64,000 bases of DNA, from positions 96,001-160,000 of the forward strand of contig JBCCQQ010000001.1 in the NCBI GenBank assembly GCA_039024555.1, written 5' to 3'. The notes under the pieces were generated by a model. That model searched no databases. It saw only the letters and a program-made list of their open reading frames with translations, and was not told the origin of the DNA. Position 1 is the first letter of the stretch. Each line of letters starts with the position of its first letter. The position numbers were made by a program, and so were the translations under genes. This DNA is from Cyanobacteria bacterium P01_D01_bin.156 (lineage in GTDB: Bacteria; Cyanobacteriota; Cyanobacteriia; Phormidesmidales; Phormidesmidaceae). Shown piece by piece: positions 5,645 to 31,702 of this stretch.

Positions 5645-8437
5645 ATGACAAAGACTAAAAGTTCTAAGGGACTCAGCTGGCAGCTTTGCAAGCCAGTCAT
5701 TGCATCCGCTCTTGCCATCGGCGGTGCATTTAACATGGTGAACCTCGTACTAGCCGAGGGCACTGACGCTGGTACACAAATTACCAACACCGCGACAGCG
5801 ACCTATCGTGACCCAGATGGGACTCCCCAAACCTCTACTTCCAACACCGTTGTTGTTGAAGTTGCAGAGATTGCTGGTATCACCGTTGTTAACACCTCTG
5901 CTGGAGAAGCAGCCACCAATAGCAACGGTAACAGTACTGTTGAGCCGGGTGAAGATGCGGCTTACGTTTTCACCGTGACTAACGTAGGTAACGATGAAAC
6001 GGATATTAGTCTGCCTGCTGTTGCCGACTTTACAGGGCCTGTCGATAGTGTTGTCAGCATTATTGCTGACCTAGATAATGATGGTAATTTTGAGCCATCA
6101 GAAGAGATTACTAGCCGTACTGATTTTGAAAACCTCGCCCCTGGTGCTTCCTTTAAGGTTCAGGTAATCGTCAAAACCTCCACCAGTGCACAGGACGATG
6201 ATATTATCACCGTGCAGTATGGTGACACCCCCGGTGATGGTCAGAACCAACCCTACGACTCCTCGGGTGGTAGTGTATTCACAGATGATAACGACAGTGA
6301 TGATGAAAATAACCTAAATGGTGCCAGTCAAACATCTGAAGAAGCTGGCCCTGAAGCTCCGGCAAACGGCGAACGTGAGGCCAGTGCAACCGGTGAAGTC
6401 ACCATTGGTAAAGAGCCTCTGCAACAGCCTCTAGTCAAATTAGAAAAGGATTTTACTAGTTACACGGCTGGAACCAGCAATGTTAATGATGATCAGCTCA
6501 CATATCAACTTAATGTTGATGTTCTAGACTCAACCAATGATGTTCCCACGGGTAGTGATGCAGAGCCTGCCGACCTACAGCCCATAACTATTAATATTGA
6601 TAGTGGTACGGCTAGGCACGTTTTAATCGCAGATGCCATCCCTGAGAAAACATCTTTGGTGAGTGCATCTGTAACAGGTGATGCAGCCACTGACAGCTGG
6701 GTAGCTGTTTATTCAACGGATGACCCAACCACAGTCAGCGCACTTGAAGCACAGTGGAGCACCACTGACCCAGGTACAGGTGTGAGACGAGTTGGTTTTA
6801 TTGCACCTGTTAATACCGAGATTGAAAGGACAGATCCAGTACTCACTGGATTCTCGATTACGATTGTTGCCGATGGTTATAACAATACAGATGCACCGGT
6901 AACGATTGCTAATATTGCCCAGGTCTTTGGTTCAGGAGCTGATGCGGATGATCCACTAACACCGGAGGATGAAACCCTTAAGTTCCCCGTAATGGATGAG
7001 TCTGGAGATCAAACACCCAGTAACTACGATCCTGCAACGAATACTTACAGTAACTTTGACCCCAACACAACTGATACCTCAGGAGTTGATGAGCCTCCCA
7101 GTGGCTTTACCCCCGGTGATGGCTACATTGATGACCCCACTGACCTGATCACCACTGGCGTCAGCGACAGGATCACCAGCAATGATCCTACTGACCCTGA
7201 AAGACTAGATGGTGGAACCAATGACACTGGCGACGACAACTCTGGTGACGATACGGATGGGAATGGTGAAGCCGTTGTTGTTGAGCTAGTTCCTCCCACA
7301 GAATCTGACTTACTAAACGGACCTGATGGCGCTCCTGATGCAGTTGGTCCCACTGGCCTCAATGATGACTTTACCAACAAGTCTGCGCCCTTCTCTGATG
7401 GCGACCCACCGGTTGTTGAATTTACTAACACCGTGGATAACTCCAGTACCGAAGGTGGTTGGGTCCGTCTAGAGCCTATTACACCTACAGATGCCAACGA
7501 TTTACCTGACGGTACAAAGGCTACCATCATCGCACCTAGTGGTACTCGCGTTGAATATACCTATACGGGTGGTACCTGGGCTAAAACTAACTCAAGCGAT
7601 CCTGACATCATCGTTCAAGTTCAGGCAGATGATGGTACTCCTGGTGGTGACGATGAATTTGACTATGGTGTTGAGGTTGATTTACCCAACGATCCGGCAT
7701 CTGACCCCACTGACCCAACAGTAGAACCAAACAAGATTCATGAACTAGATAGCTTCCCCGTACCCATCCAGGCAACCTTTGCTGGTGCAACTGCTGTCCA
7801 AACTGAAGATACGAATAACGGTGGTAATGGTATCGACAATACCGATATCTCCAATGTTTTGGATAGTTCAACAGTTCAGAACACAACTATCGATCGTGTC
7901 TACACTGGGTTCTTAAAACTGGTTAAGACCGCTCAAGTTGTTCGTGGTGATGGTCCAGAAGTTTCTGGTAACCCTGCACCAGGTAACCACATTCTTTATC
8001 GTGTTACCTACACCAACATCTCTGAAAGTGAAATTGCACCGATGCAGGGCAATGTGCTGCTAACAGCATCTGACCTAGTGATCATTGAGGATGGTACTGA
8101 GCGGGGTTGTTCTCTAGCAGCGTCTGATTCCAATAACTGGGCCTTTGACACCGATGGTAACAGTGAGCTGGATACTCGCCATGTGGCTGGTGCAGTAGAT
8201 ATGACTCACCTAGACAATGGTTCTACAGGTACTGTCTTGTTCTACAGTGGTGGTCCAGATTGTGATGGCACTGGAACAACTGGCAACCCAGACTTTAACC
8301 CAGATACAGCTGTTCAATCGTCTGAGCTCTCGGGCACGTCTTATAACACTGACACCACTAAGTACGCCTTTGACATCGAAGGTGACATTGAGCCCCTAGA
8401 GTCTGGCTACGTTGAATTCGAGCGTCGGATTAATTAA
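5645..8437 (+). CDS. Secreted acidic DUF11/Ig-like repeat protein (putative major filament subunit)
   Basis: Signal peptide ending VLA; N-terminal GTQITNTATATY; DUF11-like motifs (PGEDAAYVFTVTNVGN; LEKDF..LTYQLNV..IADAIP..IANIAQV; LVKTAQ..PGNHILYRVTYTN). Confidence 0.75.
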   Translation: MTKTKSSKGLSWQLCKPVIASALAIGGAFNMVNLVLAEGTDAGTQITNTATATYRDPDGTPQTSTSNTVVVEVAEIAGITVVNTSAGEAATNSNGNSTVEPGEDAAYVFTVTNVGNDETDISLPAVADFTGPVDSVVSIIADLDNDGNFEPSEEITSRTDFENLAPGASFKVQVIVKTSTSAQDDDIITVQYGDTPGDGQNQPYDSSGGSVFTDDNDSDDENNLNGASQTSEEAGPEAPANGEREASATGEVTIGKEPLQQPLVKLEKDFTSYTAGTSNVNDDQLTYQLNVDVLDSTNDVPTGSDAEPADLQPITINIDSGTARHVLIADAIPEKTSLVSASVTGDAATDSWVAVYSTDDPTTVSALEAQWSTTDPGTGVRRVGFIAPVNTEIERTDPVLTGFSITIVADGYNNTDAPVTIANIAQVFGSGADADDPLTPEDETLKFPVMDESGDQTPSNYDPATNTYSNFDPNTTDTSGVDEPPSGFTPGDGYIDDPTDLITTGVSDRITSNDPTDPERLDGGTNDTGDDNSGDDTDGNGEAVVVELVPPTESDLLNGPDGAPDAVGPTGLNDDFTNKSAPFSDGDPPVVEFTNTVDNSSTEGGWVRLEPITPTDANDLPDGTKATIIAPSGTRVEYTYTGGTWAKTNSSDPDIIVQVQADDGTPGGDDEFDYGVEVDLPNDPASDPTDPTVEPNKIHELDSFPVPIQATFAGATAVQTEDTNNGGNGIDNTDISNVLDSSTVQNTTIDRVYTGFLKLVKTAQVVRGDGPEVSGNPAPGNHILYRVTYTNISESEIAPMQGNVLLTASDLVIIEDGTERGCSLAASDSNNWAFDTDGNSELDTRHVAGAVDMTHLDNGSTGTVLFYSGGPDCDGTGTTGNPDFNPDTAVQSSELSGTSYNTDTTKYAFDIEGDIEPLESGYVEFERRIN

Positions 8438-8445
8438 GGCGAATG

Positions 8446-8520
8446 CATGGATAGCGACGGGGCAATCATCCATAGGGCTCCATCGCTATTCATCCTTAAA
8501 TGCCGTTGTTAACAACGGCA
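8446..8520 (+). promoter_or_regulatory. Intercistronic stem-loops after first cluster gene
   Basis: ATGGATAGCGACGGGGC...GCTCCATCGCTATTCAT imperfect stem, then perfect 20-bp palindrome TGCCGTTGTTAACAACGGCA (8501-8520). Confidence 0.55.
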
Positions 8521-8559: not shown

Positions 8560-9141
8560 ATGATGCAACGTCTTTTTGCAAAGAAACGTCTTTTGTTAGG
8601 TCTAGGAACGTTAGCGCTAATGGGTGCTGTTCCTTTTGCTACTAACCAGCCAGTAATGGCCCAGCTCCAGGAAGTCAAAGAAGCTATTGTACAGGCCGTT
8701 ATCCGTCCTGAGGTTAAGCTCACTTTAGGTGCAGAAAAGCAAATTGTTAGTTTAGACAAAAATGGCCAAGAGAAAATCTCTTGGGAAGCTCTGCAAGGCA
8801 AGGTCACCGTACAACCTGGTGATGTTATTCGCTATACCGTAGATGGTGCGAACTCTGGTGATGTAGAAGCTCAGGGTCTCTCCGTTACCCAGCCTATCCC
8901 TAGCCAGACAAGCTACATTCTAAAGTCTGCATACACTGATAGCAGTGCTGATATTGTCTACAGCATTGATGGTGGTGCAAGCTTTGTAGCTGAGCCCATG
9001 GTTGAAGTCACCCTACCTGACGGAACTGTTGAACTACAGCCTGCTCCTGCTGAAATGTATACCCACATTCAGTGGAACTTTGGTGGTGATTTAGCCTCTG
9101 CTCAATCTGTTAAGGCATCCTACAACGTCAAGGTTAAGTAA
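8560..9141 (+). CDS. Small secreted single-DUF11-domain protein
   Basis: Signal peptide; AEKQIV..VQPGDVIRYTVDGANSG..VTQPIP..YSIDGG..YTHIQW..ASYNVKVK. Confidence 0.8.
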   Translation: MMQRLFAKKRLLLGLGTLALMGAVPFATNQPVMAQLQEVKEAIVQAVIRPEVKLTLGAEKQIVSLDKNGQEKISWEALQGKVTVQPGDVIRYTVDGANSGDVEAQGLSVTQPIPSQTSYILKSAYTDSSADIVYSIDGGASFVAEPMVEVTLPDGTVELQPAPAEMYTHIQWNFGGDLASAQSVKASYNVKVK

Positions 9142-9477: not shown

Positions 9478-11025
9478 TTGAGGCTAAATATGAAGCTATC
9501 CCAGCCACCTAAACCAAAGCCAGCCACTTGGCGCAGATGGGCATATCGCACGGTGAACGTCTTATTGGCAAGCAGCTTATGTCAAGCACCTTTTGCTGCG
9601 ATCGCAAATGCCGAAGAGATTTACAATCGGGCTGATTATAACTATCGAGATGCCGAACGTAACATTGTTCTCGGCGGTACATCTGCAGAAGTTGTTATTG
9701 ATCCAGGAGAGCTGATTGACCCATTGGGTCAAATTCTCGGGTGTAATGGCTCCCTGCTACCTAATTATGAGGGGTTTTCCGTTGCCCTATATGAGCCTGA
9801 TGCCAGTGGCTTAGAGCTAGGCAACATCGTTCCTCTAACTAGAACAGAATTCCCTGACATCGAGAACAACGGAATTTCCGGTGGTAAGGAGCCCAATACC
9901 GAAAATAGCAACCCCTTCTTCTTAACCAATGCGGATGCAGGACAATATAACTTCCTGTTTGATACAGCGACACCTTTAGAAAGCCCCGTTAATGCAGGGT
10001 TAACCCAAACCAGTACAAATGCCCAATATATCTTGGTGGTCAATCCACCAGCAGATTCCGTATTTCCCCAACGACGAATCAAACTTGAACTAACGGACAG
10101 TACAGGTGGCGTTAACAACTCAGTCATTCGCTACACGGCGACAGCGTTAGATGGCATTCCCATCTCTACTAGTGGCGGTTCCCAGGTAAGTGCCACTGTA
10201 GTTGAAATCTTTAATGCAGAAACCCAGGGTCTGAATCTATTCTCTCTAGCTTTAGGAATGGTCATGTGCGAACCTGACCAAATTAGCATTACAAAAACGG
10301 CTGACCGAGCATCGGCCCAACCTGGCGATACGGTTGTCTATCGCTTAGGACTTAGAAACTTAACTGACATTGAATTAGATTCAGTCACTGTTGAAGATTT
10401 ATTGCCTCAGGGATTTCAATTGATTCCAGAGTCAGTAACCGGTGTTCTCAATGAACAAACCGTTGCCCTAGAGGCAGAAGCATCGGGTTCTGAAGTTATC
10501 TTTACAACTCCCACACCGTTACCTGTAGATGAGACCCTCAGTGTTCTCTATGCGACTCGGGTAACACCAGACGCCGTTCGAGGCGATGGTGAGAATTTAG
10601 CATCAGTAAGTGCTGAGCGTAGTGACAATGGTTACTTTGTTCAAGATGGTCCAGCCATCCATCGGCTCGTCATCGATCCAGGTATCGTCAATGACTGCGG
10701 TACTTTGATTGGCCGTGTCTTTATAGATAACAACTTTGACGGAGAACAACAACCCGGTGAAGCTGGCATCCCCAATGCTGTTGTCTTTTTAGACGATGGC
10801 AATCGGATTCTTACCGATGCCGATGGACTATTTTCGGTTACCTGCATGCTCCCAGGTACCCGCAGCGGCGTACTGGACTTTACGAGTCTCCCCGGTTACG
10901 CCCTAGCCCCCAATCTTTACTTTAAAGAACGCAACAGCCAGTCCCGCATGGTGAATATTTCTCCCGGTGGCATGGTGCGCATGAACTTTGGCGTCACGCC
11001 CACGTTCCAGGAGGAAGCTCAGTAA
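9478..11025 (+). CDS. Secreted DUF11 + SdrD-B-like domain protein (putative base adaptor)
   Basis: Signal peptide (ANA|EE); complete DUF11 (ITKTAD..QPGDTVVY..VEDLLPQG..GENLASV); C-terminal GRVFIDNNFDGEQQPGEAGIPNAVV..TDADGLFS; stop overlaps next ATG (TAATG). Confidence 0.8.
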   Translation: MRLNMKLSQPPKPKPATWRRWAYRTVNVLLASSLCQAPFAAIANAEEIYNRADYNYRDAERNIVLGGTSAEVVIDPGELIDPLGQILGCNGSLLPNYEGFSVALYEPDASGLELGNIVPLTRTEFPDIENNGISGGKEPNTENSNPFFLTNADAGQYNFLFDTATPLESPVNAGLTQTSTNAQYILVVNPPADSVFPQRRIKLELTDSTGGVNNSVIRYTATALDGIPISTSGGSQVSATVVEIFNAETQGLNLFSLALGMVMCEPDQISITKTADRASAQPGDTVVYRLGLRNLTDIELDSVTVEDLLPQGFQLIPESVTGVLNEQTVALEAEASGSEVIFTTPTPLPVDETLSVLYATRVTPDAVRGDGENLASVSAERSDNGYFVQDGPAIHRLVIDPGIVNDCGTLIGRVFIDNNFDGEQQPGEAGIPNAVVFLDDGNRILTDADGLFSVTCMLPGTRSGVLDFTSLPGYALAPNLYFKERNSQSRMVNISPGGMVRMNFGVTPTFQEEAQ

Positions 11026-14000
11026 TGAACCCGAATCGTCACTCGAAAATTTACTATTGGAGCATCTTGGCTGGTTCAGTTGCTCTATCAACGGTATCAC
11101 CGGATGGTTGGGCCTATGCCTCTCAGGATATGCCTGAGACCATCGACCCTAACAAAGCTCAGGATGTTTTACCGGAGGAATCAGCCTATGGTAACGCCGC
11201 TGACCTTAGCGTTAGTGCAATACCTGATACACCTCTTGATTCTTCTGTAGATGCTCAGTTTTTGTCATCTCAAACAGGTCCCGAGATTTTGGGGTTACAG
11301 GTTGCCCCTGAAGAGTCCTCTGATAATGATACGGCCACATTAGTCTTTCCTTCCCTAACATCGGGTATTCCTCAATTTTCGGACCCACAGTTAGCCCAGG
11401 CAACAACGACAGCCTTGGCTGAAGCACAGGAAAATCAAACTGATACAGCAGCAGATACAACCGTAGCAGACAACACTGACACAGCGGCATCTAGGTATAT
11501 CGATAACGAACTGCCTAAACTCTCTCCCAACGAAACGAAACTCGAACCATTACCGACTGCTGAGTCAGCCAACATAACTCAAATTGAACCTACTGTTACT
11601 CCCCAGGTTCAGCCCCTGCCTGCTGATAACCCAACGGTTACGAGTCAAGCTACTCCCCTCGAACTCGCAGTAACAGAGAGCGATAAATCTACGACGATAG
11701 AACAAGATGCAACAGATTCTGAAACAGGAACAACCACCGTTCAAGCCTCAGCTGAATCCGTAGCAATAGAGCAGAGTACAATAGCGCCTGAGGAGGAAGC
11801 GACTACCGCTGAGGCTGAACCAGAGATAGCCCAGTCTGTTGCATCTGGAGAAATTGAAATCCTCAACCCCACAGCGGGTAGCGTCGTTGATGTACCTGCA
11901 ATTACCGTTATTGTTCGCTTTCCAGCCACTGCTGACATTCAGTTGCAGATAAATGGTGATTCTGTCGATAACGACCTGATTGGCCGTACTGAATCGAACC
12001 CTACCACTAACCTGGTCACCCAAACTTGGTATGGGGTCCCCTTACAAGAAGGCAGCAACAGCTTAACCGTACTGGATAAGAGTGATGGTAGCCTGGTGCA
12101 ATCCACCACAGTAGAGGTCAGAGGTGCGCCTATCGAGATGACCCTGAGATCGCGAGAATCAAGGGTACCGGCTGATGGGCGTTCAATTGCGACCTTACAG
12201 GGACAATTATTAGACAGCAATGGCAATGTCTCAAACTGGGATACAATCGTCACCCTCAATGCCAGCGATGGTGAGTTTGTTGGTGTTGATTTTGCTCCAG
12301 ATCAGCCTGGGTTTCAGGTAGAAGCCCAGAACGGACGATTTAAGGCAGAACTACAGTCATCTCTAGAGTCTCATATCGTTCAGCTACAGGCAACCACAAA
12401 CGGTTTAGAAGCGTTTAACCAGGTACAGTTTGTAACACCTAAGCGCCCTAGCATTGCCACTGGTATTGTTGACCTTAGATTCGGTGCCAGAGGAACCAAC
12501 TTTTACAGTAGTCTACGAGATTTCTTACCCGAAGATGAGGACAATGATTACGCTCTAGATCTAGATGCCTCATTCTTTACCATGGGGAACGTGGGTGAGT
12601 GGCTCTTAACCAGTGCATTTAATAGCGATCGCCCCTTAAATGAAGATTGTCGAGGTGAAACCTCCCTATTCCGGCAGGGAGCAGGCAGCTGCAACAACCT
12701 ATATCCCGTATACGGTGATGACTCTTCAATCGATGTCACAACTCCATCCACCGACAGACTATATGTTCGACTAGAGCGCACATCTCCTGTAGAAGGTGCA
12801 ACGGTAGACTATGCCATGTGGGGAGACTTCAATACTGAAGAGTTTGCCAATTCATCTCAGTTGTTTACATCCACATCCCGCCAGTTACATGGATTTAAGC
12901 TCAACTATAATCTTGGCAACTTAGCCATTACGGGTCTTTATGGTGACAATATTGAGGGCTTCCAACGCGATACGATTGCTCCCGATGGTACGAGCGGCCT
13001 ATACTTTTTGTCGCGTCGGTTGGTGACCTCTGGCAGTGAACAGGTCTATCTCGAAACAGAAGAGCTGGATAGACCCGGTACTGTGCTCGAAAGAGAGCGC
13101 CTATTTCGTAATACTGATTACGATATTGATTATGATCGCGGCACATTGTTATTTGAAGATCCAGTCACTCAAACTGCGATCGGCGACTTTGGTGAAGTTT
13201 TGCTTCGCCGTATTGTTGTCACCTATCAGTTTGAGGGAGAAAATACAGATACCAATATCATTGCTGGGCGTCTACAGTATAACTTTAACCGCACCCTCAG
13301 CCAAGAATCTTGGCTAGGCACATCTTACCTAACAGAAGATCAGGGCAGTCGTAACTTTACTCTGTTTGGGGCAGATGCTCAATTTGCGTTGGGTAACAAC
13401 AACCGCTTAGTTGCAGAAATTGCCCACTCTGAAAGCGATTTTGATTTGTCTGGTCCCATCAGCGGCTCAGCCTATCGGGTTGAACTAGATGGGGTTGTGA
13501 GTGACTGGTTGAGTGGTAGAGCCTATTGGCGTTCCACCGATGCTGGCTTTACCAATGCGGCAACTACGAGTTTTGTTCCTGGTCAGACTCGGTATGGTGC
13601 CCAGGCCAATGTCAAAGTCAGTCGGAACACCACACTGCGTGCACAGTTTGATCATGAAGATAATGATGGTGTAGCCCCTCGTCCGATTACGGATCTTGAA
13701 GACTTACTGACACCGGGACAAAATCCGGTGCCAGGTTCCCGGGTCGATAACTCATTGACCACCTATTCCCTAGGACTAGCCCAGCGCCTGGGAGATACCA
13801 ATCTAGAATTTGACTGGGTTCATCGCGATCGCACTGACCGCACTAACCCAAGCCAGTTCAATACCAGTTCAGATCAGCTTAGAACACGAGTAACCACCCG
13901 AGTCTCTGACAAGCTCACTCTGCGGGCTCAAAATGAGCTAAATCTTTCATCGGAGAGCGATCCCATTTATCCCAGTCGCACCTATCTAGGACTGGATTGG

Positions 14001-20500: not shown

Positions 20501-23373
20501 ATTTAGGTGACATACCTCAAGATCCAACCAGCCCTTACTTTCACCTAGGCTTCAAACAGGCCAATCGAGCACAAACTGTTTTAACTGAAAACTGGCAACC
20601 TGGGACTAATGAGTTAATTGTCCGGGTTCGCAGTGAACAACCCCTACAAGGATTTGTAGGAGAAATATCAGCCGATGTTCTTTGTATACCTGATTTTGGG
20701 GATGCCCCCGATACTTATGGCACCGATGCTACCGACGATAGCGGCGAAGGGATTGGCCCTAACCACATTATTGTCGGCGGCATCCATTTGGGTACCATCG
20801 CTCCTGATGCTGAAGCCAATGCTGAGACTCCACTAGATGGCACAGGCGATGGCGCTGAGGATGATGGTGTCACTATGCCTGCCTCTATTCAGCCAGGAGA
20901 GACAATTTCTCTGCCCATCACTGTTACTGGCAGCGGTAATTTGACCGCGTGGATTGACTGGAATGGCGATGGCACGTTTGCAGCGGGAGAACAGATTGCC
21001 ACCGACGCAGTCGATGGGGGTACGGGCGATACGGACGGCAACATTGATGGCACCATCACCCTGAGCGTGACTGCACCAGCCGGAGCCACTGTTATCGGTA
21101 ATACGTATGCCCGATTTCGATACAGCTCCGACACAGGGCTGGGGGCAACAGGCGCTGCCAGTGATGGTGAAGTAGAGGATTATCCACTCACTATATCTTT
21201 GCAAGACATTCCTAAAATTCCAGACTTACCGCCAATAACACCGCCAACTCCAGAGATTCCTGACTCTATTTGCGCTCTACCGGGTTCAGATGGCACAGCT
21301 GCTTTGAGTGGTGTACTGAATACTTACTATCCTGGTGTTTCATCAGCGAGTGCTGGGGCAACAACACTTTCTTTAGGACCTATCCATACTGGAGGTAATA
21401 CAACTACCATTGAAAAAGGTGACAAACTGCTGATTATTCAAATGCAGGATGCCGACATTACTTCAACCAATGCTGACACTTACGGTAGTGGCACATCTGG
21501 CACTGCAGCCAGTGGCTCCACAGCACTGAATACCGCTGGATACTATCAGTATGTTGTTGCCGACAGTGCAGTGGGTGCTGCTGGCGGTACATTACAGCTG
21601 GCGGACCCCCTTGCTTTTACTTTTACCCATAGCGATTTCTCAGGTACCTCTGGTCAGCGACGCTTCCAGGTCATTCGCATGCCACAGTACTATGATGCAT
21701 CCATTACAGGTATAGTCACCGCAGCTCCTTGGAATGGTGCTTCCGGTGGTGTGGTGGGTTTGGATGTGGCCAAAACCTTAACGTTTGCTGGCGGTACTAT
21801 CGACGTCAGTGGTCAAGGGTTTCGTGGCGGCGGTGGTCTCAATGTGCTTGGCGATGGAGTGGCCCTACCTTACCCAGGGAACACCGACTACGTTAGTCTT
21901 GCAACCAATCCTTACCATGGCTCTAAGGGAGAAGGTATTGCCGGAACCCCCCGGTACATTCGTAATGATGTAACCACCACAGTCACAGATACCGGTATTG
22001 AAGGCTACCCCAACGGTAGCTTTGGTCGCGGTGCACCCGGTAACGCAGGCGGTGGTAGCACGGACCCGAAATCGTCGGCCAACGCTGCCAATACTGGCGG
22101 CGGCGGCGGTGCCAACGGTGGCTACGGTGGCCATGGGGGCGATTCATGGATTGATACCCATGGCCGCCAACCCATGGGTGGCTTTGGTGGACAGGCATTC
22201 CCTAGCAGTTCTAGCCGGGTAATTATGGGCGGCGGTGGCGGCGCAGGCACTGCTAACAATTCGGCTGGAGGCGTTACTCCATCTGGTGGGGGCGGTGGGG
22301 GCATTGTCATCCTCCGCGCTGGCGAAATTGCAGGTTCTGGAACTATTGAAGCGAACGGCATCCAAGGGGTGGAGCCCACAGGAACTGACGGCGGCGGCGG
22401 TGGCGGTGCTGGCGGTAGTGTAGTGATGCTTTCTGTCGATCCGTCTAGTGCAACAGTGACCATCAATGCTCGAGGGGGCAGAGGTCTTGATTCTGGCTTC
22501 CGTGAACACGGCCCCGGCGGCGGCGGTGGCGGCGGCTATGTCGCCTATGATGGCATTACGCCTACGGTAGATATTGCTGGGGGTGAACCCGGTAATGACC
22601 AAGCCTCTGCTAGTACCAGCGCCGGGGCTGACCCGGCAGCGGACCCCTATGGCGCTACGGCGGGTGGTAGTGGGCTGGCACAGTCCACTACCATCCCTGA
22701 CCAGGGGGTAGAACCTGGTGGAGAATGTCTAGAGCCACAAGTTCTCTTAGTTAAGCGGATCACCGCTATCAATGGTGCTGTCAGTACCAATAATGGTGAC
22801 GATTTGGCGGCTTACATGGATGAAACATCCAATCCATATGATGACAACACTCTGACTACACCAGTTCCAACTCCCCCAGATACAGATCAGTGGCCTAATC
22901 CGAATATGAGTCTAGTCGGGGGTATCCATGGGGGAAATGTTGCATTTGATGATGAGATTGAATACACCATTTATTTTCTCTCTTCTGGAAATACGACTGC
23001 CGAGAATGTTCTCTTCTGTGACTACGTACCTGAGTTTACGAGCTTTCTCCCCAATGCCTACGCTGGCAACAGCGCCAATCCAGACGGTATCGGCATTGAT
23101 CTCAGCGTAGAACTCTTTCGCAACGGGACTACTGATTATCACACCGGAGCTAACGATGGCGACAGCGCCACCTACTTTGCCCCAGGAGTGGACCCGGCAG
23201 CCACTTTCCCCGGCATCGACTGTGAAGGCGATGAAGATAACGACCCGCTGACACCCACCACAAATACCAATAACAATGGCGCTCTAGTAGTGAATCTAGG
23301 AGATTTACCCGACGCTACATCCGACAGTACTGGAGCCTACGGCTATGTACGATTTAGAACACGGGTCAAGTAA
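17518..23373 (+). CDS. Giant mosaic surface protein/adhesin (SdrD-B-like, 2x GEVED, Gly-rich domain, conserved C-terminal DUF11-like domain)
   Basis: Signal peptide (ANA|GP); NISGSLYED..GDYSFTNIPEGTY; two DxGDAP...GEVEDY repeats; GGGGG-rich region; ends AYGYVRFRTRVK. Confidence 0.85.
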   Translation: MIMKWSRQQLNHDNAGIKLLTNSLRLGLGAMTSAASLWLAYGAVSSQSANAGPLTSITTTTPPATNSFIYTAGGQEHRFGQGNDVILQSVTDASGTYSPDTVADQVIVRRVDNANVSGEKCGIFAAQSGSNVRHYGPTYPHFSPQDANGNCSYEAILSGFNIGLGALDLFSNTPSGGDNEYNNVERIDFIFNDGIHAPFNSSLLNQAGHIVTEKSANNAYMIAAVTAVDGAGNPTAYATPVWVAGYEDTYTPAGLTVVRMAQVGSATQNGFLTSDSNSAPHGAPSRKGGQAEKFGGAFVTLQDMGLAAGQKYYGFSFIPADVESAIGTSSADLLDYTSFPTTTSRHASGYEPGDGDMFGGTAGYFIAYSSNNISGSLYEDDSPQNNSFDSGSESKLGNNIEVILYGDVNGNNTYDAGSDTIIDTTDTTNGDYSFTNIPEGTYGIYVNTADGDIASNLSLGTPNNLSVTLNGSDITNQNFGFDSTVVGGICANPISGPFNSSNYALNTPLQGSLPLSFYGGGMLFDANLSGIATWKDGVQIRNDSTVGQQIFLQPENASDYLNTNNEAIYTFTFPNPVTDLTLQGAGLNNEDGTTILPSYQGVPIPTTSANFSGLNPVPGMRLEDADGNGESDTVVGSSTAGGVSVTTNIYTFTIPGPVDTLTIVSGKDDVNRNSTVTIGLHSFGFCGDGVLDYGDAPDSYGTNATDDGGEGIGPSHAIVSGIHLGTAPDAESDAETPLDGSGDGAEDNGITLPTLTEGDTSYSIPAANINATGSGTLHAWIDFNKSGTFEPGEHKSVEVISGTPSGALIWSGITAGAAGDTYARFRFTSDTSITLNTPGGAAGDGEVEDYQVAISTSVLPTFSCSTNANLFNTGYSGSGKAATGTRDLNWDVGYISAATGSPDIVAAPSSITNWVDAYVTGRVTTAWDPSVFGQAEWISHVNDTDHTGQKVDVFYRYQFNIDPAVTLDSFAVHMDWMADNSIWEIYVNGTPQSGNLGDIPQDPTSPYFHLGFKQANRAQTVLTENWQPGTNELIVRVRSEQPLQGFVGEISADVLCIPDFGDAPDTYGTDATDDSGEGIGPNHIIVGGIHLGTIAPDAEANAETPLDGTGDGAEDDGVTMPASIQPGETISLPITVTGSGNLTAWIDWNGDGTFAAGEQIATDAVDGGTGDTDGNIDGTITLSVTAPAGATVIGNTYARFRYSSDTGLGATGAASDGEVEDYPLTISLQDIPKIPDLPPITPPTPEIPDSICALPGSDGTAALSGVLNTYYPGVSSASAGATTLSLGPIHTGGNTTTIEKGDKLLIIQMQDADITSTNADTYGSGTSGTAASGSTALNTAGYYQYVVADSAVGAAGGTLQLADPLAFTFTHSDFSGTSGQRRFQVIRMPQYYDASITGIVTAAPWNGASGGVVGLDVAKTLTFAGGTIDVSGQGFRGGGGLNVLGDGVALPYPGNTDYVSLATNPYHGSKGEGIAGTPRYIRNDVTTTVTDTGIEGYPNGSFGRGAPGNAGGGSTDPKSSANAANTGGGGGANGGYGGHGGDSWIDTHGRQPMGGFGGQAFPSSSSRVIMGGGGGAGTANNSAGGVTPSGGGGGGIVILRAGEIAGSGTIEANGIQGVEPTGTDGGGGGGAGGSVVMLSVDPSSATVTINARGGRGLDSGFREHGPGGGGGGGYVAYDGITPTVDIAGGEPGNDQASASTSAGADPAADPYGATAGGSGLAQSTTIPDQGVEPGGECLEPQVLLVKRITAINGAVSTNNGDDLAAYMDETSNPYDDNTLTTPVPTPPDTDQWPNPNMSLVGGIHGGNVAFDDEIEYTIYFLSSGNTTAENVLFCDYVPEFTSFLPNAYAGNSANPDGIGIDLSVELFRNGTTDYHTGANDGDSATYFAPGVDPAATFPGIDCEGDEDNDPLTPTTNTNNNGALVVNLGDLPDATSDSTGAYGYVRFRTRVK

Positions 23374-23474: not shown

Positions 23475-26400
23475 TTGATGTGCATGTTAAGCATGTTCTG
23501 CCATGCCATAGATTCACAATTGCTATCGCACATGCATCATTATGTTCACAATACTACGCTAAGCCAGAGGCCTAATACTTGCTTGTATTTTCTGGGTCAG
23601 CATAGAACCGGTATCTATCGCTGTTTTCTAAATTTAGGGCTCATCAGCCTCATGGGAATTATAGCTGTGCCCAAGGCAACAGCAGCAGTAACCACGTTTG
23701 ACATTGATGTGCGCAAGGATGGTACAGCGCCTTTTGCAGGGACTGATCCGACCTATCCTGGTACTAGCAATGCAGGAAATGATGCTAATGATAGTAATGG
23801 TATTATCCGTACCTATGACATAGCTACCTATCGGGTCCGATATGCTACAGATACTCAGCCCAATGGCAGTACAACCATTACGGCTACTATTGCTGATAAT
23901 TATCATCTTTGGGAGGAAAACCAGGCTGGGTGTCTTGGCAATGTGTCGATTAGTAGCGATCGCAAAACTCTTACCTGTACAGAATCCCTACCCACATCAA
24001 CCACCGGTTTCTTTGATTTTACAGCTGTTGTTCTAGGAACAGCCCCCCACGGTGCAGATCTGATAGTTAACGCTACTTTAAGCTCCAGTGCCACTAATCT
24101 AGCTGCAGGCCCCACCAACATCAAAGTCTCTGCAACACCACAAATGGATCTTGCCAAAGATGATTCTGGCGCTCCACGTCAGGTGGGAATAATGGCCGGA
24201 CCTAGTGGTGAAGAGGGATTAGTATACGCATGGCCCCTTTCAATCGTCGCACCAAAAGGCAGCGAAGTCCTTGGAGATGCTGATTCCACAACCCCTGGCA
24301 ATCAAATTATCATTACCGATGTAGTCAGCGGAATCTCCCCCAATGCCCGTCTATATAACTGGGGAGGCCGCTCGGGCTGTGCGCCTAATACCAAAGACAG
24401 TAATATCGCTGGCGATTGGATTAGAGATATTCCGCTTGGCTCCCTAACAATTGCTGGAGCAGGTCAAGAAGCTAATGCTGTGGCAGACTCTGGAACCTGG
24501 AACTGTAGCCAAAGCAGCGCTGGCACGGATATTACCATCACCATTACGGATGCTGATCTCACAGCAAGCCATCGTCCAACCCTTGATGCCTCTGGAGATA
24601 CCCTAAACGTTACCGACACCCATCTAGTAGCCGGGGTCGTAGAAATCTGGATACCCATGAGTGACTTCCCATCAGGGCAGAACCAATTGACAGTCACCAA
24701 TTACTACGACTTTCTAGACACTCCCAGCATTACTAACCAGACGAACACAGAGCCAGACCGAGGAAATAATAGCGTTGTTCCTATCAGCAATAGTGATGCT
24801 GTTAATAATGACCGCACCTTTACCCTACAGCGTCCACTCTCAGGACGCTCCCAGGATAAATACTATCGAACACCTTACAGCGGTGGCAATTTTAGTAACA
24901 ACAGAGTTCTTTCTCCCATGACGGATATTGAATCCGGCGATGGTGTTGTCATTCCAGGTCAGGTTTTTGGTAGTTATTTCACCATTAACAATAATGGCGT
25001 TGGGGAGCTGACCAATGTGTTTTTGTGCGACAAGTTTGACAATCGCACCCAAATTTTGGCCCCTAATCCGACTAGTGGCGAGTATGTCGAGTTGCGAACC
25101 AATGGCGATCGTCTAAAAGCATCAGATGTCACCATTGAATATGGTGTTGGCGGAGATAATGCAACAGATAATTACTACGGTAGTGAAACAGCCGCCATTG
25201 ATGATGTTAGTCGCTTTGATGCTCAGCGCAATGCCACCTGTGGGGATAGTGATGCCACCTGGTATAGCGAAACTGATTTGGCAAACGATCCGAGTTTAAT
25301 TCCGAATGTGACTCGGGTAAGAATTCGCCCCACTGCTACGAATGGGGTTCTGCCAGAAGGCTTCCGCATTGATGCGGTGCTGCATCTGCAGGCGCTTAAC
25401 GTTGATCCGGTTACTGGAGCACAGATTCCTGACCCAACGATTCTGGCTAATTTTGTGACGTCCCGCACCGATGAAGTTAACAGCGGCAACTGGGCAGTGG
25501 GGTCCTACAACCCTGTGGACCATAGTGGAAATGATGATGGCGATCGTCTACAGCTAACCCGTGCGATCGCTCGCATTGATAAAAGTACCGATGATCCTAG
25601 TAATGCGACCGAGGCAGATGACTCTCTCAGCACCGTTAGAGCCACTGAAAACATTACCTTTGCCCTTGAGTCTACCTTGACCGCCTTAACCAGCGAAGTC
25701 TCTCAGGCACAAATTATAGTCACTGACACCTTACCTGTAGAACTTAGCTATGTCACGGGCTCAGCCAATATTACTCCAGATAGTATTATTGCAAATGGCG
25801 ATGGCACCACTACTCTAAATTGGGACTTAGGCAATTACCCGATCAGTACACCAATTCCTACCATTACTTTTCAGGCCAAAGCTGGTTTTGATGTGGCAGG
25901 CGGGACAGATGCCTTAAACCAAGCATCTATTGCAGCCTTAGATACTAACGGATTAGATCTTGACACCTCCCCTTTAGCATCTCGCACGGATGTTCGGTCG
26001 ATCACTATCATTAACAATGCTGCTTTTACCATCTTCAAAGAAGCCGTTACTCCTGAGATCGATCCGGGAGATGACATTATCTATAATCTTTACCTCGCTA
26101 ACCTAAGTGAGGACACAAATGTAGCAGCAGGGTCCAGATTTATCGATATTCTCCCCTATGAAGGAGATGGAGCCATTCGAGACTCTTTTGATGGGTTAGG
26201 AACTCCTCCCACAGATTACACAGTTGCCCCAGTCTTTCAAGATATTCAGGATATTAATAATGTTGGTTTTACCTTTGAGTACACCAACGATACTCCTAGC
26301 GATATCAGTGATAATCCAGCCACTCAAAATAGCAGCACGATTTGGTGTACCCCATCTGAAATCACCAATAGCACACCAGGCTGTCCAACCACAGACTATT

Positions 26401-28100
26401 CAGATGTCACAGCTGTTTCAATTATTACACCAGCTATCAATGCAGGCGATCCAACGCACCAACTCCGTCTTACCATGACCTCTACCGGTAGCTTAGGCAA
26501 CGACATTTATACCAACAACTTTAAGGGCACCCCTGACCATCCAAGTCTAGGATTTATTCCCTCTGTTGATGCCACTGTGAGAACTCGTGCAGGCACTCCC
26601 AATCCCAGCTGTGCCCTCGGTACTGGCAATGCTGACCTTAGTATTACCCCTAATATCAGCGATGAGGTCAGGGGCAACAATACCACGACCCGAACAATTG
26701 TTGATACTCTGGACGACAGCTGGCGAACACAGGTGGGGCTACCTCAGGCAGGTACTGTTATCCCCTGGTTTGCGGCAGCACAGTCCCTTAGCAACAACGA
26801 ACCAAATTTATTTACCTACACTCTGGATGATCAAGATATCTCTGTTGGAGTAGCCCTAGTCAATATAGACGATGACAATAACTGTACAGGATCAGTCCAC
26901 ACTGGTGCAGCAGCTGAACTCAATGACAGTGACACACTGCAAGATAATGCGCCTCGACCCGCCAGCCTATATGACGACACCGTGGGAGCTGCCAATGGTC
27001 ACCCAGCTATGTGGAATGAGAATGTAGGTGCTACCGACAGCCCCAATGGTGTAATGTTTACCTTTGCCCAACCTGTGCGGGCATTCGGAGCGTGGTTTGG
27101 CGATGTGGAAACTCGCACGGATGGTAATGGAGCAGCAGCTTATTTACGTTTGCTAGATGTCAATGGCGATCGCATCGGAGCCGATATCGCTATTCAGCCC
27201 ACAAATCTCATTGAAAGTGGTGGCACTACCGCCATTAATCAAACGAACTGTGGTGGTACAGCCACCGATATCGGCTGCGGTAATCGCTCTACGCGATGGA
27301 TTAGTTTCGTCGATACAGTTGCTACGCCTAGGGTGAAACAGGCAGTACTGATTGTCGGCGATGACGATGAGGGAGGAGATGCTGGAACTGAGCATATCAG
27401 TTTTATCGGTGCCAATGTGTTAACAGCTTCCAACCCCAATGTGTTGCTTGTAAAACGAATTACCGCCATCAACGGTGAAACAACAACCAGTCAAGGCATA
27501 AATCTGGCTACCCATAATCCCACCGATTATCCCTATGACGATAACGATATTCCCTCGGTTAGCGATCCAAACCATCCTGATTACGATCCAGCCGATCCAG
27601 CTTTTGACCCCCATGAAACCAATCAATGGCCAACACCCTTAAATGCTTCGCTAGCAGGTGGTACTGATGGAGGAAATGTCTTACCCAATGATGAAATTGA
27701 GTACACTATCTATTTCCTCTCATCTGGGGACACTACGGCAGAGAATGTTCTCTTCTGCGACTATGTGCCTGCATTTACTCAATTTATTCCCAACGCCTAC
27801 AACAGCGATACTCCACAAGCCTTAGGAGGCATTGGCGGTGCCGATCTGAGTATCGAGCTCTATAGAAACAACACTACTGATTTTCACACCGGAGCAAACG
27901 ATGGTGACAGTGCCACTTACTTTGGCCCTGGCATCGATCCTGCCAGTAATTTTCCAGGCATTGACTGTGATGGTGATGGCAATGGCAGCAATAACAATAC
28001 CAACGGGGCCATTATTGTCAATTTAGGTAATCTTCCCAATGCAGCCACCAACGCCGCTGAAGCCTATGGCTACGTGAGATTCAGAACACGGGTCAAATAA
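23475..28100 (+). CDS. Large DUF11-repeat surface protein/adhesin with conserved C-terminal domain
   Basis: Signal-like stretch ending KATA; several DUF11 units (IDKST..VTDTLP..ALNQASI; IFKEA..FIDILP..YTNNF); ends AYGYVRFRTRVK. Start uncertain. Confidence 0.85.
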   Translation: MMCMLSMFCHAIDSQLLSHMHHYVHNTTLSQRPNTCLYFLGQHRTGIYRCFLNLGLISLMGIIAVPKATAAVTTFDIDVRKDGTAPFAGTDPTYPGTSNAGNDANDSNGIIRTYDIATYRVRYATDTQPNGSTTITATIADNYHLWEENQAGCLGNVSISSDRKTLTCTESLPTSTTGFFDFTAVVLGTAPHGADLIVNATLSSSATNLAAGPTNIKVSATPQMDLAKDDSGAPRQVGIMAGPSGEEGLVYAWPLSIVAPKGSEVLGDADSTTPGNQIIITDVVSGISPNARLYNWGGRSGCAPNTKDSNIAGDWIRDIPLGSLTIAGAGQEANAVADSGTWNCSQSSAGTDITITITDADLTASHRPTLDASGDTLNVTDTHLVAGVVEIWIPMSDFPSGQNQLTVTNYYDFLDTPSITNQTNTEPDRGNNSVVPISNSDAVNNDRTFTLQRPLSGRSQDKYYRTPYSGGNFSNNRVLSPMTDIESGDGVVIPGQVFGSYFTINNNGVGELTNVFLCDKFDNRTQILAPNPTSGEYVELRTNGDRLKASDVTIEYGVGGDNATDNYYGSETAAIDDVSRFDAQRNATCGDSDATWYSETDLANDPSLIPNVTRVRIRPTATNGVLPEGFRIDAVLHLQALNVDPVTGAQIPDPTILANFVTSRTDEVNSGNWAVGSYNPVDHSGNDDGDRLQLTRAIARIDKSTDDPSNATEADDSLSTVRATENITFALESTLTALTSEVSQAQIIVTDTLPVELSYVTGSANITPDSIIANGDGTTTLNWDLGNYPISTPIPTITFQAKAGFDVAGGTDALNQASIAALDTNGLDLDTSPLASRTDVRSITIINNAAFTIFKEAVTPEIDPGDDIIYNLYLANLSEDTNVAAGSRFIDILPYEGDGAIRDSFDGLGTPPTDYTVAPVFQDIQDINNVGFTFEYTNDTPSDISDNPATQNSSTIWCTPSEITNSTPGCPTTDYSDVTAVSIITPAINAGDPTHQLRLTMTSTGSLGNDIYTNNFKGTPDHPSLGFIPSVDATVRTRAGTPNPSCALGTGNADLSITPNISDEVRGNNTTTRTIVDTLDDSWRTQVGLPQAGTVIPWFAAAQSLSNNEPNLFTYTLDDQDISVGVALVNIDDDNNCTGSVHTGAAAELNDSDTLQDNAPRPASLYDDTVGAANGHPAMWNENVGATDSPNGVMFTFAQPVRAFGAWFGDVETRTDGNGAAAYLRLLDVNGDRIGADIAIQPTNLIESGGTTAINQTNCGGTATDIGCGNRSTRWISFVDTVATPRVKQAVLIVGDDDEGGDAGTEHISFIGANVLTASNPNVLLVKRITAINGETTTSQGINLATHNPTDYPYDDNDIPSVSDPNHPDYDPADPAFDPHETNQWPTPLNASLAGGTDGGNVLPNDEIEYTIYFLSSGDTTAENVLFCDYVPAFTQFIPNAYNSDTPQALGGIGGADLSIELYRNNTTDFHTGANDGDSATYFGPGIDPASNFPGIDCDGDGNGSNNNTNGAIIVNLGNLPNAATNAAEAYGYVRFRTRVK

Positions 28101-28234: not shown

Positions 28235-31200
28235 TTAATTGACTTTAGCTCTAAACCGGATATAGCCATAGGCTGCACTTGTGGTTCCACCTGGGCCTAC
28301 ATGGGATACATCACCCACATCTACAACAACAGCGCCATTGTCATTAACGGCAGAACAAGTGACAGATGGAGCTTCTCCTGGATTATAGAAAGTTCCTGAA
28401 TCCCCGTCGTTGGCACTCGTGAAAAATATTGACCCTAACGCTGTTGATAATTCAATGCCCAGGTCAGTAGTGCCAATACCATCAATCGAACCAGTATTAG
28501 CATTAAAAGAGTTATTAACAAATGTGGTGTATTGAGGGACCAGATCACAGAAACCTATACCCCTAACATCAGTGCCGCCATTGGATAGGTAATAAATGGT
28601 GTACTCCAGCGTATCCCCTGAGACAATAGTGCCCCCATCGATTTCTCCTTTTAGGTAGTCATCAGGCCAATTATCATCGTTATCATTGACGTCGTTGGGG
28701 TCATCTACGATGTTTGTGAGCAACTCACCATTGATGGCCGTGATACGTTTGACTAGGACTAAATTGCTCGGCACTCGCACTGATACCGGTACGGCATTGG
28801 ATTCAAGTAACCCAAGCAAATCCTCAACTCGCCCACCCCACACGTTTGTATAAACATCACCAGACTGGTTCCCATCAGTATCCATGGTAATCACCAGGGT
28901 GCGGGTGGGAGTATTTTTGAGAAACGCAGGAGTCGCAATGCGGGTAGCTGTTACATCGGCTACTGTTGTGGGGCAGCCTGCTGTACCCAATTGAGGCAGC
29001 GTACACCACTGGGTTGCCCCCCCTGGCTGGTTAGTAGCATCCTCTGGATCAAAGCTAATACTAGCCGGAGTTGCATTGGTATAGCGAAAAGTCTCACCGT
29101 TAGTACCAGTGATACTGAAAAACTCCAAACTTCCAGAATAATTGGTAGCTGGTGTACGGCCATCTCCTATATATGGCAGGATGTCGATGAAGTCACCAGT
29201 ACCTACATCAACGGTGCCGGTGTTGGCATACTTTAGTTCATAGGTAAAACCTTCGTCCTGTTCAATTAGCTGATGCGGAACCTCTTTAACAATGCCAAAG
29301 GCAGCGGCATTACCAATAGTCACACCACGAACAGCAGTTCTAGCCGATTCGGGCGTAGCGTCATCTGGAGATTCAATGACGACTGTATTGAGAGCTTGGG
29401 TATTGTTTGGAACATCGAATTTAGCCTGAGCATCAAAGATAATCTCTGGCAGCGGTTGATTTGGCACACTGGGGCCGAAGTCCCATTGTAAAATGGTAGT
29501 GCCATCCGGATTGACAACAACAGTATCTGGAATAATATTGGCGGAGCCTGGAACATAGGTGAATTCGATGGGTAAAATATCCCGAACCAACACTTCTGGA
29601 TTAACTGGAGCTGGATCAACTATTGCTGTCACCGAAGGTTGCAAACGAAACCCAACGGTATCCCCTGCCACCATAGAGTTAACAGTGTCGTCTGGCATAG
29701 TCTCTTTAGTAACGCGGACGATGCCTCGACTTAAAAACAGACGATCGCCCCAGGCTTTACTACCAGTATGGTTGCTGGGGACATAGGTTCCGTGGTACCA
29801 ACCATTGCGCGCATTGGCGTTAGATACTGTCCACGGCAAGGTAGGTGTACTCACAGCCGAGAAGTTGGGCATCAGAGCACCCGTCGGAATTTTGGTGGTA
29901 GTGCCGGGATAAAAGTTGCGGGCAATGAAGTTTACAGCTAGGTCCATGGTAGAGCCTGCAGGAAAGTCTTCTAATGCAATAAATCGAATTTTGGTGATGA
30001 CATCCACACCACCGGGTACCGCCGTCATATCGGTATACCAGCCGTCAGCACTTTCTGCATCATTACAGGTGGCAGTACGCATGGCATCGTAGCTAGAGTA
30101 GGTGCCAGCATTGCCGTTTTCATCTCCGGTTCCATACTCAATTTTATAGTCATAGGCAGGACCACCGTTAAACACTCGCACAGCGGTCGTTGAGTCACCA
30201 GGGATGGGAGTAAGTTGGAGGGTGTTGCTATCGAACTTTTCGCAGTAGCGGTAATCTTCCCAATCTAAAATAGCATTGTTATGACCATAGAGACGTTTGG
30301 CAAAGTTTTGCCCCGGCATAACTACGCCATCGCCACTGTTGCGATTGGTCATCGGGAAAAGTATGCTCCCTCTAGCAGTAATGCTACGGGAGTAGTATTG
30401 ATTAAAGCTACCGCCTGCAGCAATTAGGGTGAAGGTACGGGTATTGTTATCGGGATCATTATTGGTGCTCGGAGTGGATGGATCGTTGTTAGTTTGACCG
30501 CTAACGCTTTGATTAGTGACTCGGGAGTACTGATTAGTAAGTTTGAGGTCACCACCATTGTCTAGAATTTCGGAGGTGGGAATCCATATTTCAATGGTCC
30601 CTGAAATCAGGTAAGACTCATTTGCCGGTAACGAGCCCCCACTACGGTGCTGTGAGGGTACATGGTTGCCAGTGGTGTCTGCGCCAGTGATGGTAATCGT
30701 AATGGGGTCGCCGGGATTAGCCTGACTACAGCTCCAGTCACCGGAATCGGCTACTGCACGTTCGGGGTTAGCACCTGCCACCGATAGATTACCGTGAGGT
30801 AAGAACCATTCTCCAATATTATTTTGACCTGGCTCTGAGTTCCAGGCACAGCCTCGGTGATTCCCCCCCCAGTCATACAGCCTGGCACCGGGTACCGGAG
30901 ATTCGGCTACACCATCCTTACCATTCGGGTCACTCAAGAAGTCACCAAATAACGTATCGGTGATGACGATATCGCCCACTAGGGGCTCACTTCCTTTGCC
31001 ATTTGGACCTGCCAGCATGGTCAGGGGATAGCGAACAACAACCCCGTCTGTACCATCGGGAGCCTGACGTACACCTAACTGTCGAGAAGAACGATTTTTA
31101 CGCAGGTCGGCTTGGGGGCTCGCAGAAACGATGGTTTCGACGACCGGGGCAGTGACTGAAGCCGATGTATCAGATGAAAACTCACCCGTTGCTGCAACGA

Positions 31201-31702
31201 TATCGTTGTTGGCAACGTAGGTGCTGTCCGGGCGCTGACCAATGACCCGTGCCGAAATTTCGATAAAGCCATTGCTGCCGCTGGCAATATCTCCTAGATA
31301 GCAGTCAACGGTTTGGGAGTCATCAGGCTCAATGACGATAGCTGATGGCGGCTTGCAAACAGCCGGTAGCTCAGTCCATTCTTGATCAGAGGAAATATTA
31401 GCTGTAAGGACGACGTTTTCTGCATCGCCGTTATTGACGGCATATTCCCATTTATAGATAATTTCGTCCAGAGTGCGGATAATGTTATTAGTCGGGCTGG
31501 AGTCGTTTCCAGGCGAGTCATCGGCGCTAAAGGGAGTCGTACCGGTGACGCTGGTGGAGAAGTTAAAGGTAATATCTGCCGCATTGGCCGGTGATGCAAT
31601 GTTGAGAAGTAGCGAAATCGCAACTCCAATCGCAAAATAAAATATTCTCAGCTTTGGTAAAGCTATTGGGTAACGAAACCGTTGCATGATAGACCCTGAC
31701 AA
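28235..31702 (-). CDS. DUF11-repeat surface protein, paralog of 23475-28100
   Basis: Collinear motifs with the upstream ORF (GTxPF..GND..IIRTxD; ARLYxWGG; AVADSGxWxCSQ; GDGVVxPGQ; GDRLxLxR); ends AYGYIRFRAKVN. Confidence 0.85.
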   Translation of the reverse strand: MSGSIMQRFRYPIALPKLRIFYFAIGVAISLLLNIASPANAADITFNFSTSVTGTTPFSADDSPGNDSSPTNNIIRTLDEIIYKWEYAVNNGDAENVVLTANISSDQEWTELPAVCKPPSAIVIEPDDSQTVDCYLGDIASGSNGFIEISARVIGQRPDSTYVANNDIVAATGEFSSDTSASVTAPVVETIVSASPQADLRKNRSSRQLGVRQAPDGTDGVVVRYPLTMLAGPNGKGSEPLVGDIVITDTLFGDFLSDPNGKDGVAESPVPGARLYDWGGNHRGCAWNSEPGQNNIGEWFLPHGNLSVAGANPERAVADSGDWSCSQANPGDPITITITGADTTGNHVPSQHRSGGSLPANESYLISGTIEIWIPTSEILDNGGDLKLTNQYSRVTNQSVSGQTNNDPSTPSTNNDPDNNTRTFTLIAAGGSFNQYYSRSITARGSILFPMTNRNSGDGVVMPGQNFAKRLYGHNNAILDWEDYRYCEKFDSNTLQLTPIPGDSTTAVRVFNGGPAYDYKIEYGTGDENGNAGTYSSYDAMRTATCNDAESADGWYTDMTAVPGGVDVITKIRFIALEDFPAGSTMDLAVNFIARNFYPGTTTKIPTGALMPNFSAVSTPTLPWTVSNANARNGWYHGTYVPSNHTGSKAWGDRLFLSRGIVRVTKETMPDDTVNSMVAGDTVGFRLQPSVTAIVDPAPVNPEVLVRDILPIEFTYVPGSANIIPDTVVVNPDGTTILQWDFGPSVPNQPLPEIIFDAQAKFDVPNNTQALNTVVIESPDDATPESARTAVRGVTIGNAAAFGIVKEVPHQLIEQDEGFTYELKYANTGTVDVGTGDFIDILPYIGDGRTPATNYSGSLEFFSITGTNGETFRYTNATPASISFDPEDATNQPGGATQWCTLPQLGTAGCPTTVADVTATRIATPAFLKNTPTRTLVITMDTDGNQSGDVYTNVWGGRVEDLLGLLESNAVPVSVRVPSNLVLVKRITAINGELLTNIVDDPNDVNDNDDNWPDDYLKGEIDGGTIVSGDTLEYTIYYLSNGGTDVRGIGFCDLVPQYTTFVNNSFNANTGSIDGIGTTDLGIELSTALGSIFFTSANDGDSGTFYNPGEAPSVTCSAVNDNGAVVVDVGDVSHVGPGGTTSAAYGYIRFRAKVN

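Follow-up and report, generated by a model that had tools for sequence, protein, structure and literature searches.

We analysed a window of 64,000 nucleotides from Cyanobacteria bacterium P01_D01_bin.156 (contig JBCCQQ010000001.1, positions 96,001 to 160,000 of the forward strand), in which eight genes, here named A to H in the order of their lowest coordinate, form a cluster that likely encodes the parts of a surface fibre (Table 1). An open reading frame (ORF) check of the window located all eight where a first-pass annotation, made from the sequence alone, had placed a cluster of secreted proteins; signal peptides were assigned by eye. H is convergent with G. In a scan against Pfam and NCBIfam, A matched DUF7925, E matched OmpA and beta-helix families, and F matched GEVED; DUF11/TIGR01451 was matched by B, C, F, G and H, and D gave weak matches only. 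Among named homologues, the nearest come from Leptothoe and cyanobacteria related to it.

Table 1. Parts of the cluster, with window coordinates and the basis of each assignment.
Feature	Coordinates	Strand	Basis
A, putative shaft subunit, 930 amino acids (aa): signal peptide, donor hairpin, three internal domains, terminal acceptor domain	5645..8437	+	domain scans, homologue alignment
A donor hairpin, residues 39-77, with N48 as predicted isopeptide Asn	5759..5875	+	conservation, modelled interface
A complete internal isopeptide domain, DUF7925, K268/D330/N423	6428..7309	+	Pfam, conservation
A terminal acceptor domain: K761; E815 or adjacent D816; no Asn strand	7907..8434	+	alignment
B, small acceptor-like protein with Q111 in place of the catalytic acid; candidate assembly factor or non-covalent cap	8560..9141	+	conservation, co-occurrence
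C, putative base, 515 aa: donor hairpin (N50), complete CLIPPER domain (K273, D307, N373), SdrD_B-like tail	9478..11025	+	domain scans, profile comparison
D, outer-membrane protein: low-complexity N-terminus, two immunoglobulin (Ig)-like domains, giant barrel with inserted beta domain	11025..15218	+	fold model, Ig matches
D two Ig-like domains	about 11847-12434	+	invasin/GH2 Ig matches
D barrel, about 36-38 strands	about 12444-15056	+	predicted structure
D beta domain inserted in barrel	about 12960-13181	+	predicted structure
E, beta-helix protein with C-terminal OmpA-type peptidoglycan-binding domain; accessory	15215..17392	+	Pfam/NCBIfam, locus survey
F, tip adhesin candidate: two GEVED domains, partial AgmC-like region, terminal acceptor	17518..23373	+	Pfam/NCBIfam
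F terminal acceptor, K1746 and D1835	22723-23370	+	alignment
G, tip adhesin candidate: complete internal CLIPPER domains and terminal acceptor	23475..28100	+	NCBIfam, HMM
G terminal acceptor, K1327 and D1429	27423-28097	+	alignment
H, tip adhesin candidate: complete internal CLIPPER domains and terminal acceptor	28235..31702	-	NCBIfam, HMM; acceptor chain of modelled complex
H terminal acceptor, K985 and D1053	28238-28768	-	alignment

Five proteins (A, B, F, G and H) stop within a DUF11/CLIPPER domain that lacks its last two strands. The first-pass annotation had noticed that these proteins end abruptly after a conserved strand, and the pattern extends well beyond the window: the same last strand closes 46 aligned terminal domains from the window and its relatives, and among the best 120 of 526 A homologues the same terminal Asn is the protein end in 109. 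To define the missing piece, we used a hidden Markov model (HMM) of 144 positions built from complete internal domains only, with protein ends left out. On this model, 225 terminal domains span about positions 12-98, while N-terminal segments (188 of 204 match) pile up at about 100-135, showing that the missing piece is the last two strands. Residues 33-74 of A fall on positions 96-134, which places N48 in the Asn column. The earlier suggestion that A and C begin with the missing strand is right about the presence of a donor at both N-termini, but the donor is a two-strand hairpin (A residues about 46-74) and not a single strand. The N-terminus of C was not detected by the donor HMM, which missed cyanobacterial C hairpins; profile-profile comparison with the donor profile gave a match (probability 94.9%, E-value 4e-8). 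N50 of C is found in 32/32 long cyanobacterial orthologues, and a loose hairpin pattern in 32/32 long and 7/7 short C proteins, against a background of 7/49 tips. Complete CLIPPER copies, with Lys, acid and Asn within one domain, occur inside A, C, G and H; in the terminal domains the triad is incomplete, as they end near model position 98, ahead of the Asn strand. Profiles of the tip domain and of the A N-terminus had no match among solved structures at E-values up to 1.

DUF11, renamed CLIPPER, forms a Lys-Asn isopeptide bond catalysed by Asp, as established by crystal structure (PMC12617251). In this cluster the triad is divided between subunits, a feature that the first-pass annotation did not include: the acceptor holds Lys and Asp/Glu, the donor holds Asn, and all three are near-invariant. 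In the same 120 homologues of A, N48 is conserved in 120/120, K761 in 119/120 (1 gap) and an acid at position 815 in 118/120 (2 gaps); D816 may be an alternative catalytic residue to E815. The internal triad of A (K268, D330 and N423), which is the same as the predicted DUF7925 triad listed in PMC12617251, is conserved in 116, 117 and 117 of them.

We also counted triad residues by alignment columns across loci, after removing C-type tails that came from HMM drift and five rows judged to be fragments or off-frame (one of the five was later found to hold a B domain, and one small protein was reassigned from B to the tips). The catalytic column holds an acid in 45/45 non-cyanobacterial donor-plus-acceptor proteins (shafts), in 28/34 cyanobacterial shafts by alignment (34/34 by a regular-expression count, a method that proved unreliable), and in 49/49 and 28/29 members of two acceptor-only (tip) groups, but in only 5/68 B proteins. 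With a matrix trained on three of the four groups counted, Lys was recovered in 41/45 non-cyanobacterial and 28/34 cyanobacterial shafts and in 49/49 and 22/29 tips, at a shuffle rate of 0.03-0.04. The donor Asn is present in 128/131 sequences, and in 78/81 among non-seed sequences. Since the split triad is near-invariant on different chains, the joints between subunits are probably covalent, each closed by an intermolecular Lys-Asn isopeptide bond.

As the first-pass annotation had proposed, we modelled an adhesin terminal domain with the N-terminus of A, using the H domain (50-row alignment) and A residues 38-258 (hairpin and adjacent domain, 99 rows). The three runs scored 0.87, 0.87 and 0.83, and the best of three controls scored 0.00. 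The 0.87 mark is reached by 116/157 solved complexes and 2/215 mismatched pairs, a calibration that applies only roughly to custom alignments. Contact agreement between runs was at least 91%, and the predicted local distance difference test score (pLDDT) of the partners was at least 83. Nearly all of the interface is formed by the hairpin (A 46-59 and 62-74), which lies against the strands with K985 and D1053; N48 is among the listed interface residues. This supports binding of the shaft hairpin by the tip domain in trans. Folding of the N-terminal strand into its own adjacent domain had been named beforehand as a result that would speak against the proposal; in the model, the hairpin of A pairs with H instead. 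A single-sequence fold of A was uninformative (pLDDT 34.6).

Relatives retain the A-B-C-D-(E)-tips order; their tips vary, and some have donor and acceptor. Many diderm phyla have the gene set, beside shaftless (tip and base) and single-giant-adhesin forms on the same barrel. In this neighbourhood survey, which the first-pass annotation had called for, the roles that it had assigned (donor and acceptor in the shaft, acceptor in the tips, donor in the base, barrel as platform) hold across phyla. The same parts are found on plasmids of Thermus, Deinococcus, Pacificitalea and Acinetobacter; in Thermus thermophilus HB8 and HB27, which are genetically tractable, the cluster is on the megaplasmid. 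A scan for the barrel motif with a degenerate DNA pattern gave at least 120 matches, and DNA of 80 loci from many phyla, among the matches listed, was classified: 46 are split-type, 20 have one long adhesin with the barrel, and 14 are too short or other. B is present at 34 of the 46 split-type loci, and an OmpA domain at 10/46 split-type and 12/20 long-adhesin loci. Because B was one of the criteria for locus class, and flanks of the long-adhesin loci are short, the fair statement is that no tabulated locus has B beside a long donor-less adhesin. When genomes were searched whole, a full B was found elsewhere in 2/10 long-adhesin genomes, and B was found in 5/5 split-type genomes that lack it in the table.

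Among 301 genomes of the source phylum, a strong barrel match is found in 44, a full B in 36 and a full cyanobacterial tip domain in 41; by a count from the match tables, all 36 and all 41 fall within the 44. The 8 barrel genomes without B are also without an A match, and 7 of these 8 have the tip domain. In these 7 genomes, tip and base must pair in trans. The shaftless loci retrieved have a short donor-bearing C beside D.

Several variants were seen during this survey. A second, shaftless locus in the same genome (L041; G000:C17, about 4600-14400, minus strand) has neither A nor B and encodes a short donor-bearing C of 326 aa, a barrel of 1185 aa, an OmpA-domain protein of 691 aa and one tip of 1060 aa. 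Giant one-piece adhesins (2000-3500 aa) with a C-type tail use the same barrel. At L034, L035, L036, L037, L039 and the 20 loci of the barrel scan, the barrel lies beside one such long adhesin (up to about 3500 aa) with a C-type tail, and donors and acceptors are absent; fibrillar adhesins may thus have a dedicated route for anchoring and secretion. Some adhesins of relatives (L014:117-5324, L016:2630-4171, L017:16845-18506, L018:1096-4071) combine a donor hairpin with a tip-type acceptor and could insert along the shaft. C proteins of Thermus and Deinococcus (L031:6470-9163, L033:8720-11506) carry an extra CLIPPER-like domain after the tail, and at L026:16380-18950 and L032:6209-9043, A is in several pieces (frameshifts or assembly errors).

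B had been given no role in the first-pass annotation; its lack of a catalytic acid and its co-occurrence with A were found here. The catalytic position is Gln in all of the best 120 of 200 B homologues; three cyanobacterial B proteins have Asp there and His in place of the conserved Lys. By profile, B is DUF11-like. No B relative was found on viral contigs. We do not take B for an ordinary tip, since it carries neither an adhesin domain nor the catalytic acid and does not occur in shaftless genomes. Its loss of the acid and its association with the shaft gene make a role as an assembly factor more likely. It should also be noted that B residues about 134-172 are a hairpin insertion specific to this family and not seen in the acceptors of shafts or tips; the insertion might fill the groove of B itself or contact the barrel.

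D residues 470-1358 were folded with 66 sequences (pLDDT 84.9, predicted template modelling (TM) score 0.81). The model has 39 strands outside the inserted beta domain (model residues 177-250), and we read it as a barrel of about 36-38 strands. Fold searches found no close solved match for D, which implies neither a new nor a different fold. The best Foldseek match is SlpA, an S-layer-associated barrel of Deinococcus (TM 0.25); SprA chains are among the matches but weak (TM 0.13-0.21). FimD is tied with porins in VIA-align (Z 12.8, root-mean-square deviation (rmsd) 9.4, 337 aligned, compared with Z 15.2, rmsd 7.6, 245 aligned for a porin) and has a Foldseek TM of 0.17-0.24. Structural look-alikes in the Atlas are unnamed. 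The D family has 1578 representatives at 50% identity (E-value up to 0.001). Judging from its size, Anabaena All3289 may be an orthologue of D. PMC9705863 mentions this protein of 1289 aa, which has a possible C-terminal outer-membrane anchor, as not being a typical OmpA. C is fused to the barrel at 39/46 split-type loci. In the first-pass annotation, the OmpA protein ties the platform to peptidoglycan; E has an OmpA-type domain, and this part, seen at 10/46 split-type loci, is an accessory.

The split fold, the split triad, the part classes and their co-occurrence, all visible in sequence, together with the modelled tip-hairpin pair and the modelled large barrel, make it likely that the cluster builds a surface fibre by hairpin complementation of split CLIPPER domains. 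Subunits would reach the periplasm through Sec export, directed by their signal peptides. The open terminal domain of a tip adhesin (F, G or H) is modelled to take the N-terminal hairpin of A, and the open domain of each A would take the hairpin of the next A, repeatedly. By the evidence of the fusions, the chain may terminate on the hairpin of C, with the tail of C held at the barrel D; fusions and the usher analogy suggest that the fibre exits through D, tip first. Each completed domain would join acceptor Lys and Asp/Glu with donor Asn, allowing an intermolecular Lys-Asn isopeptide bond to form with no enzyme. B, as a non-reactive acceptor, would probably shield shaft hairpins before assembly, which is the weakest step of the scheme. 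OmpA-type domains would fix some versions to peptidoglycan.

Several points weigh against this interpretation. The fibre, the oligomer and the bond are predictions from genes and models. The modelled pair is tip with shaft and not shaft with shaft; its score may stem from a resemblance to solved complete CLIPPER/CnaA domains, and what the model gives for Lys and Asn is that both are listed in the interface. The match of the donor profile to the complete-domain profile is weak (28%, E-value 6e-4), and the Lys position of B is not assignable. The genomes are related, so the counts overstate independence. Finally, the shaftless loci show that the parts need no polymer to work; A could then be just one spacer.

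This last point leads to the strongest alternative, a short fixed assembly of tip, one or few A and base, in which the same complementation and bond would give not a long pilus but a fibrillar adhesin of modular build. Shaftless loci with tip, base and barrel, the one-piece adhesins that share the barrel, and the two different donor-plus-acceptor subunits at several loci are all consistent with this. However, A carries both halves in every intact locus, it is accompanied by a dedicated factor, B, that is absent from shaftless loci, and no sequence feature limits repeat addition; we therefore consider a short assembly rather unlikely. Less likely again is a non-covalent donor-hairpin fibre that retains Lys, acid and Asn just for folding. 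The bond is missing from some DUF11 domains (PMC12617251), and A has Glu at the DUF11 Asp position. Nevertheless, the three residues are near-invariant despite lying on separate chains, with the acid lost only in B, and BsaA provides a precedent for an Asn-Lys bond in trans (PMC11580942).

It is improbable that the terminal domain is instead a secretion signal in the style of type IX secretion, read by D, with the cargo released or anchored singly. SprA, of type IX secretion, is a very large barrel that serves varied cargo on a conserved C-terminal domain, and here too one conserved C-terminal domain sits on very varied N-terminal cargo, with D as a giant barrel whose Foldseek results include SprA chains. 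But the similarity to SprA is low, no SprA-family sequence match was found for D (other type IX components were not searched), and a secretion signal leaves the N-terminal hairpins of A and C, the split triad and the modelled interface unexplained. An envelope, sheath or matrix scaffold in place of a projecting adhesive fibre is the most improbable reading, as the SlpA match of D and the OmpA domains at many loci are outweighed by the one donor and one acceptor per subunit, which imply a linear chain, by adhesin-type domains on the tips, and by patchy presence (44/301 genomes).

We thus retain a fibre of complemented CLIPPER domains. On balance, though with less assurance, we also favour a distinct class of diderm pilus: covalently continuous, without sortase or PapD-type chaperone, made from natural tag-and-catcher halves of one adhesin domain, with a dead decoy acceptor, a barrel of about 36-38 strands and interchangeable tips. 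If so, a barrel shared with shaftless and one-piece adhesins would capture the step from giant adhesin to pilus.

The surroundings of the cluster were also recorded. Upstream of A (window 1241-5006) are a Ser/Thr kinase and a GAF-HisKA sensor. On the other side, at 32051-35664 (minus strand), a solute-binding protein, a 241-aa protein and a solute-binding protein with vWA adjoin the cluster; the same three-gene neighbourhood is found in relatives L014, L017, L019, L028 and L030. A promoter and terminator scan was at chance level (26 vs 26.6; 13 vs 15.6).

No published description of the system was found in the literature searched, which did not extend to supplements that are possibly relevant. 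The parts represent a real, widespread and apparently undescribed assembly system, and confirmation of the fibre would make it categorically new. It would be an additional route by which diderms (cyanobacteria, Deinococcus-Thermus, Proteobacteria and other phyla) assemble and secrete surface fibres, would give a function to the barrel family of 1578 representatives, and would provide a natural family of self-ligating protein pairs. For cyanobacteria that form mats and biofilms, it also offers a mechanism of adhesion that can be tested.

Type V pili are diderm fibres that use strand exchange, but they are built from lipoprotein precursors, and their donor strand is C-terminal and released by a protease; here the donor lies at the N-terminus. 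CLIPPER/DUF11 fibrillar adhesins share the fold and the Lys-Asp-Asn triad, but their described bonds are intramolecular, in a single chain; the terms "donor" and "strand complementation" are absent from the main text of PMC12617251. We judged the DUF11 grappling hook of Litorilinea (one 6,596-aa chain) and the tafi system to be different systems. The archaeal thread filament (Saci_0406) combines donor-strand complementation with an intermolecular isopeptide; it differs in bonding Asn to the N-terminal amine of subunit n+2, in its archaeal origin and fold, and in having no barrel (PMC9715654).

Of the known systems, chaperone-usher pili and Clostridium BsaA come nearest to this one. In chaperone-usher pili (Fim, Pap), as in this cluster, an incomplete Ig-like domain is made complete through an N-terminal extension of the next subunit, which is seen here in profile coverage and a predicted complex only. 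In both, the distal adhesin is acceptor-only and the outer-membrane barrel has a plug-like insert (assembly polarity and usher features as given in the review PMC13721041). In contrast to those pili, the donor here is a two-strand hairpin of the CLIPPER fold, the joint is predicted to be covalent, the shaft is multi-domain, the barrel has about 36-38 strands compared with 24 in the usher, and the base is often fused to it. The first-pass annotation had recognised no PapC or PapD; correspondingly, the usher family PF00577 had no match in D or in the 99% complete genome (an E. coli positive control was detected), and the PapD-family chaperone PF00345 had none in the genome. Nor were pilin, curlin or sortase families, likewise not recognised before, among the Pfam and NCBIfam matches of the eight cluster proteins.

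The "exchange and lock" fibre of Clostridium perfringens BsaA (TasA family) bonds a donor-strand Asn to an acceptor Lys with a catalytic acid and no enzyme (PMC11580942). The same arrangement, Asn on the donor with Lys and acid on the acceptor, is found here, where the bond is predicted from conservation. BsaA differs in being Gram-positive, with a TasA fold, the SipW peptidase, a single donor strand and no outer-membrane barrel, and TasA and SipW had no Pfam match among the eight cluster proteins and five neighbours. The cluster is therefore chaperone-usher-like in polarity and BsaA-like in locking, yet it belongs to neither group.

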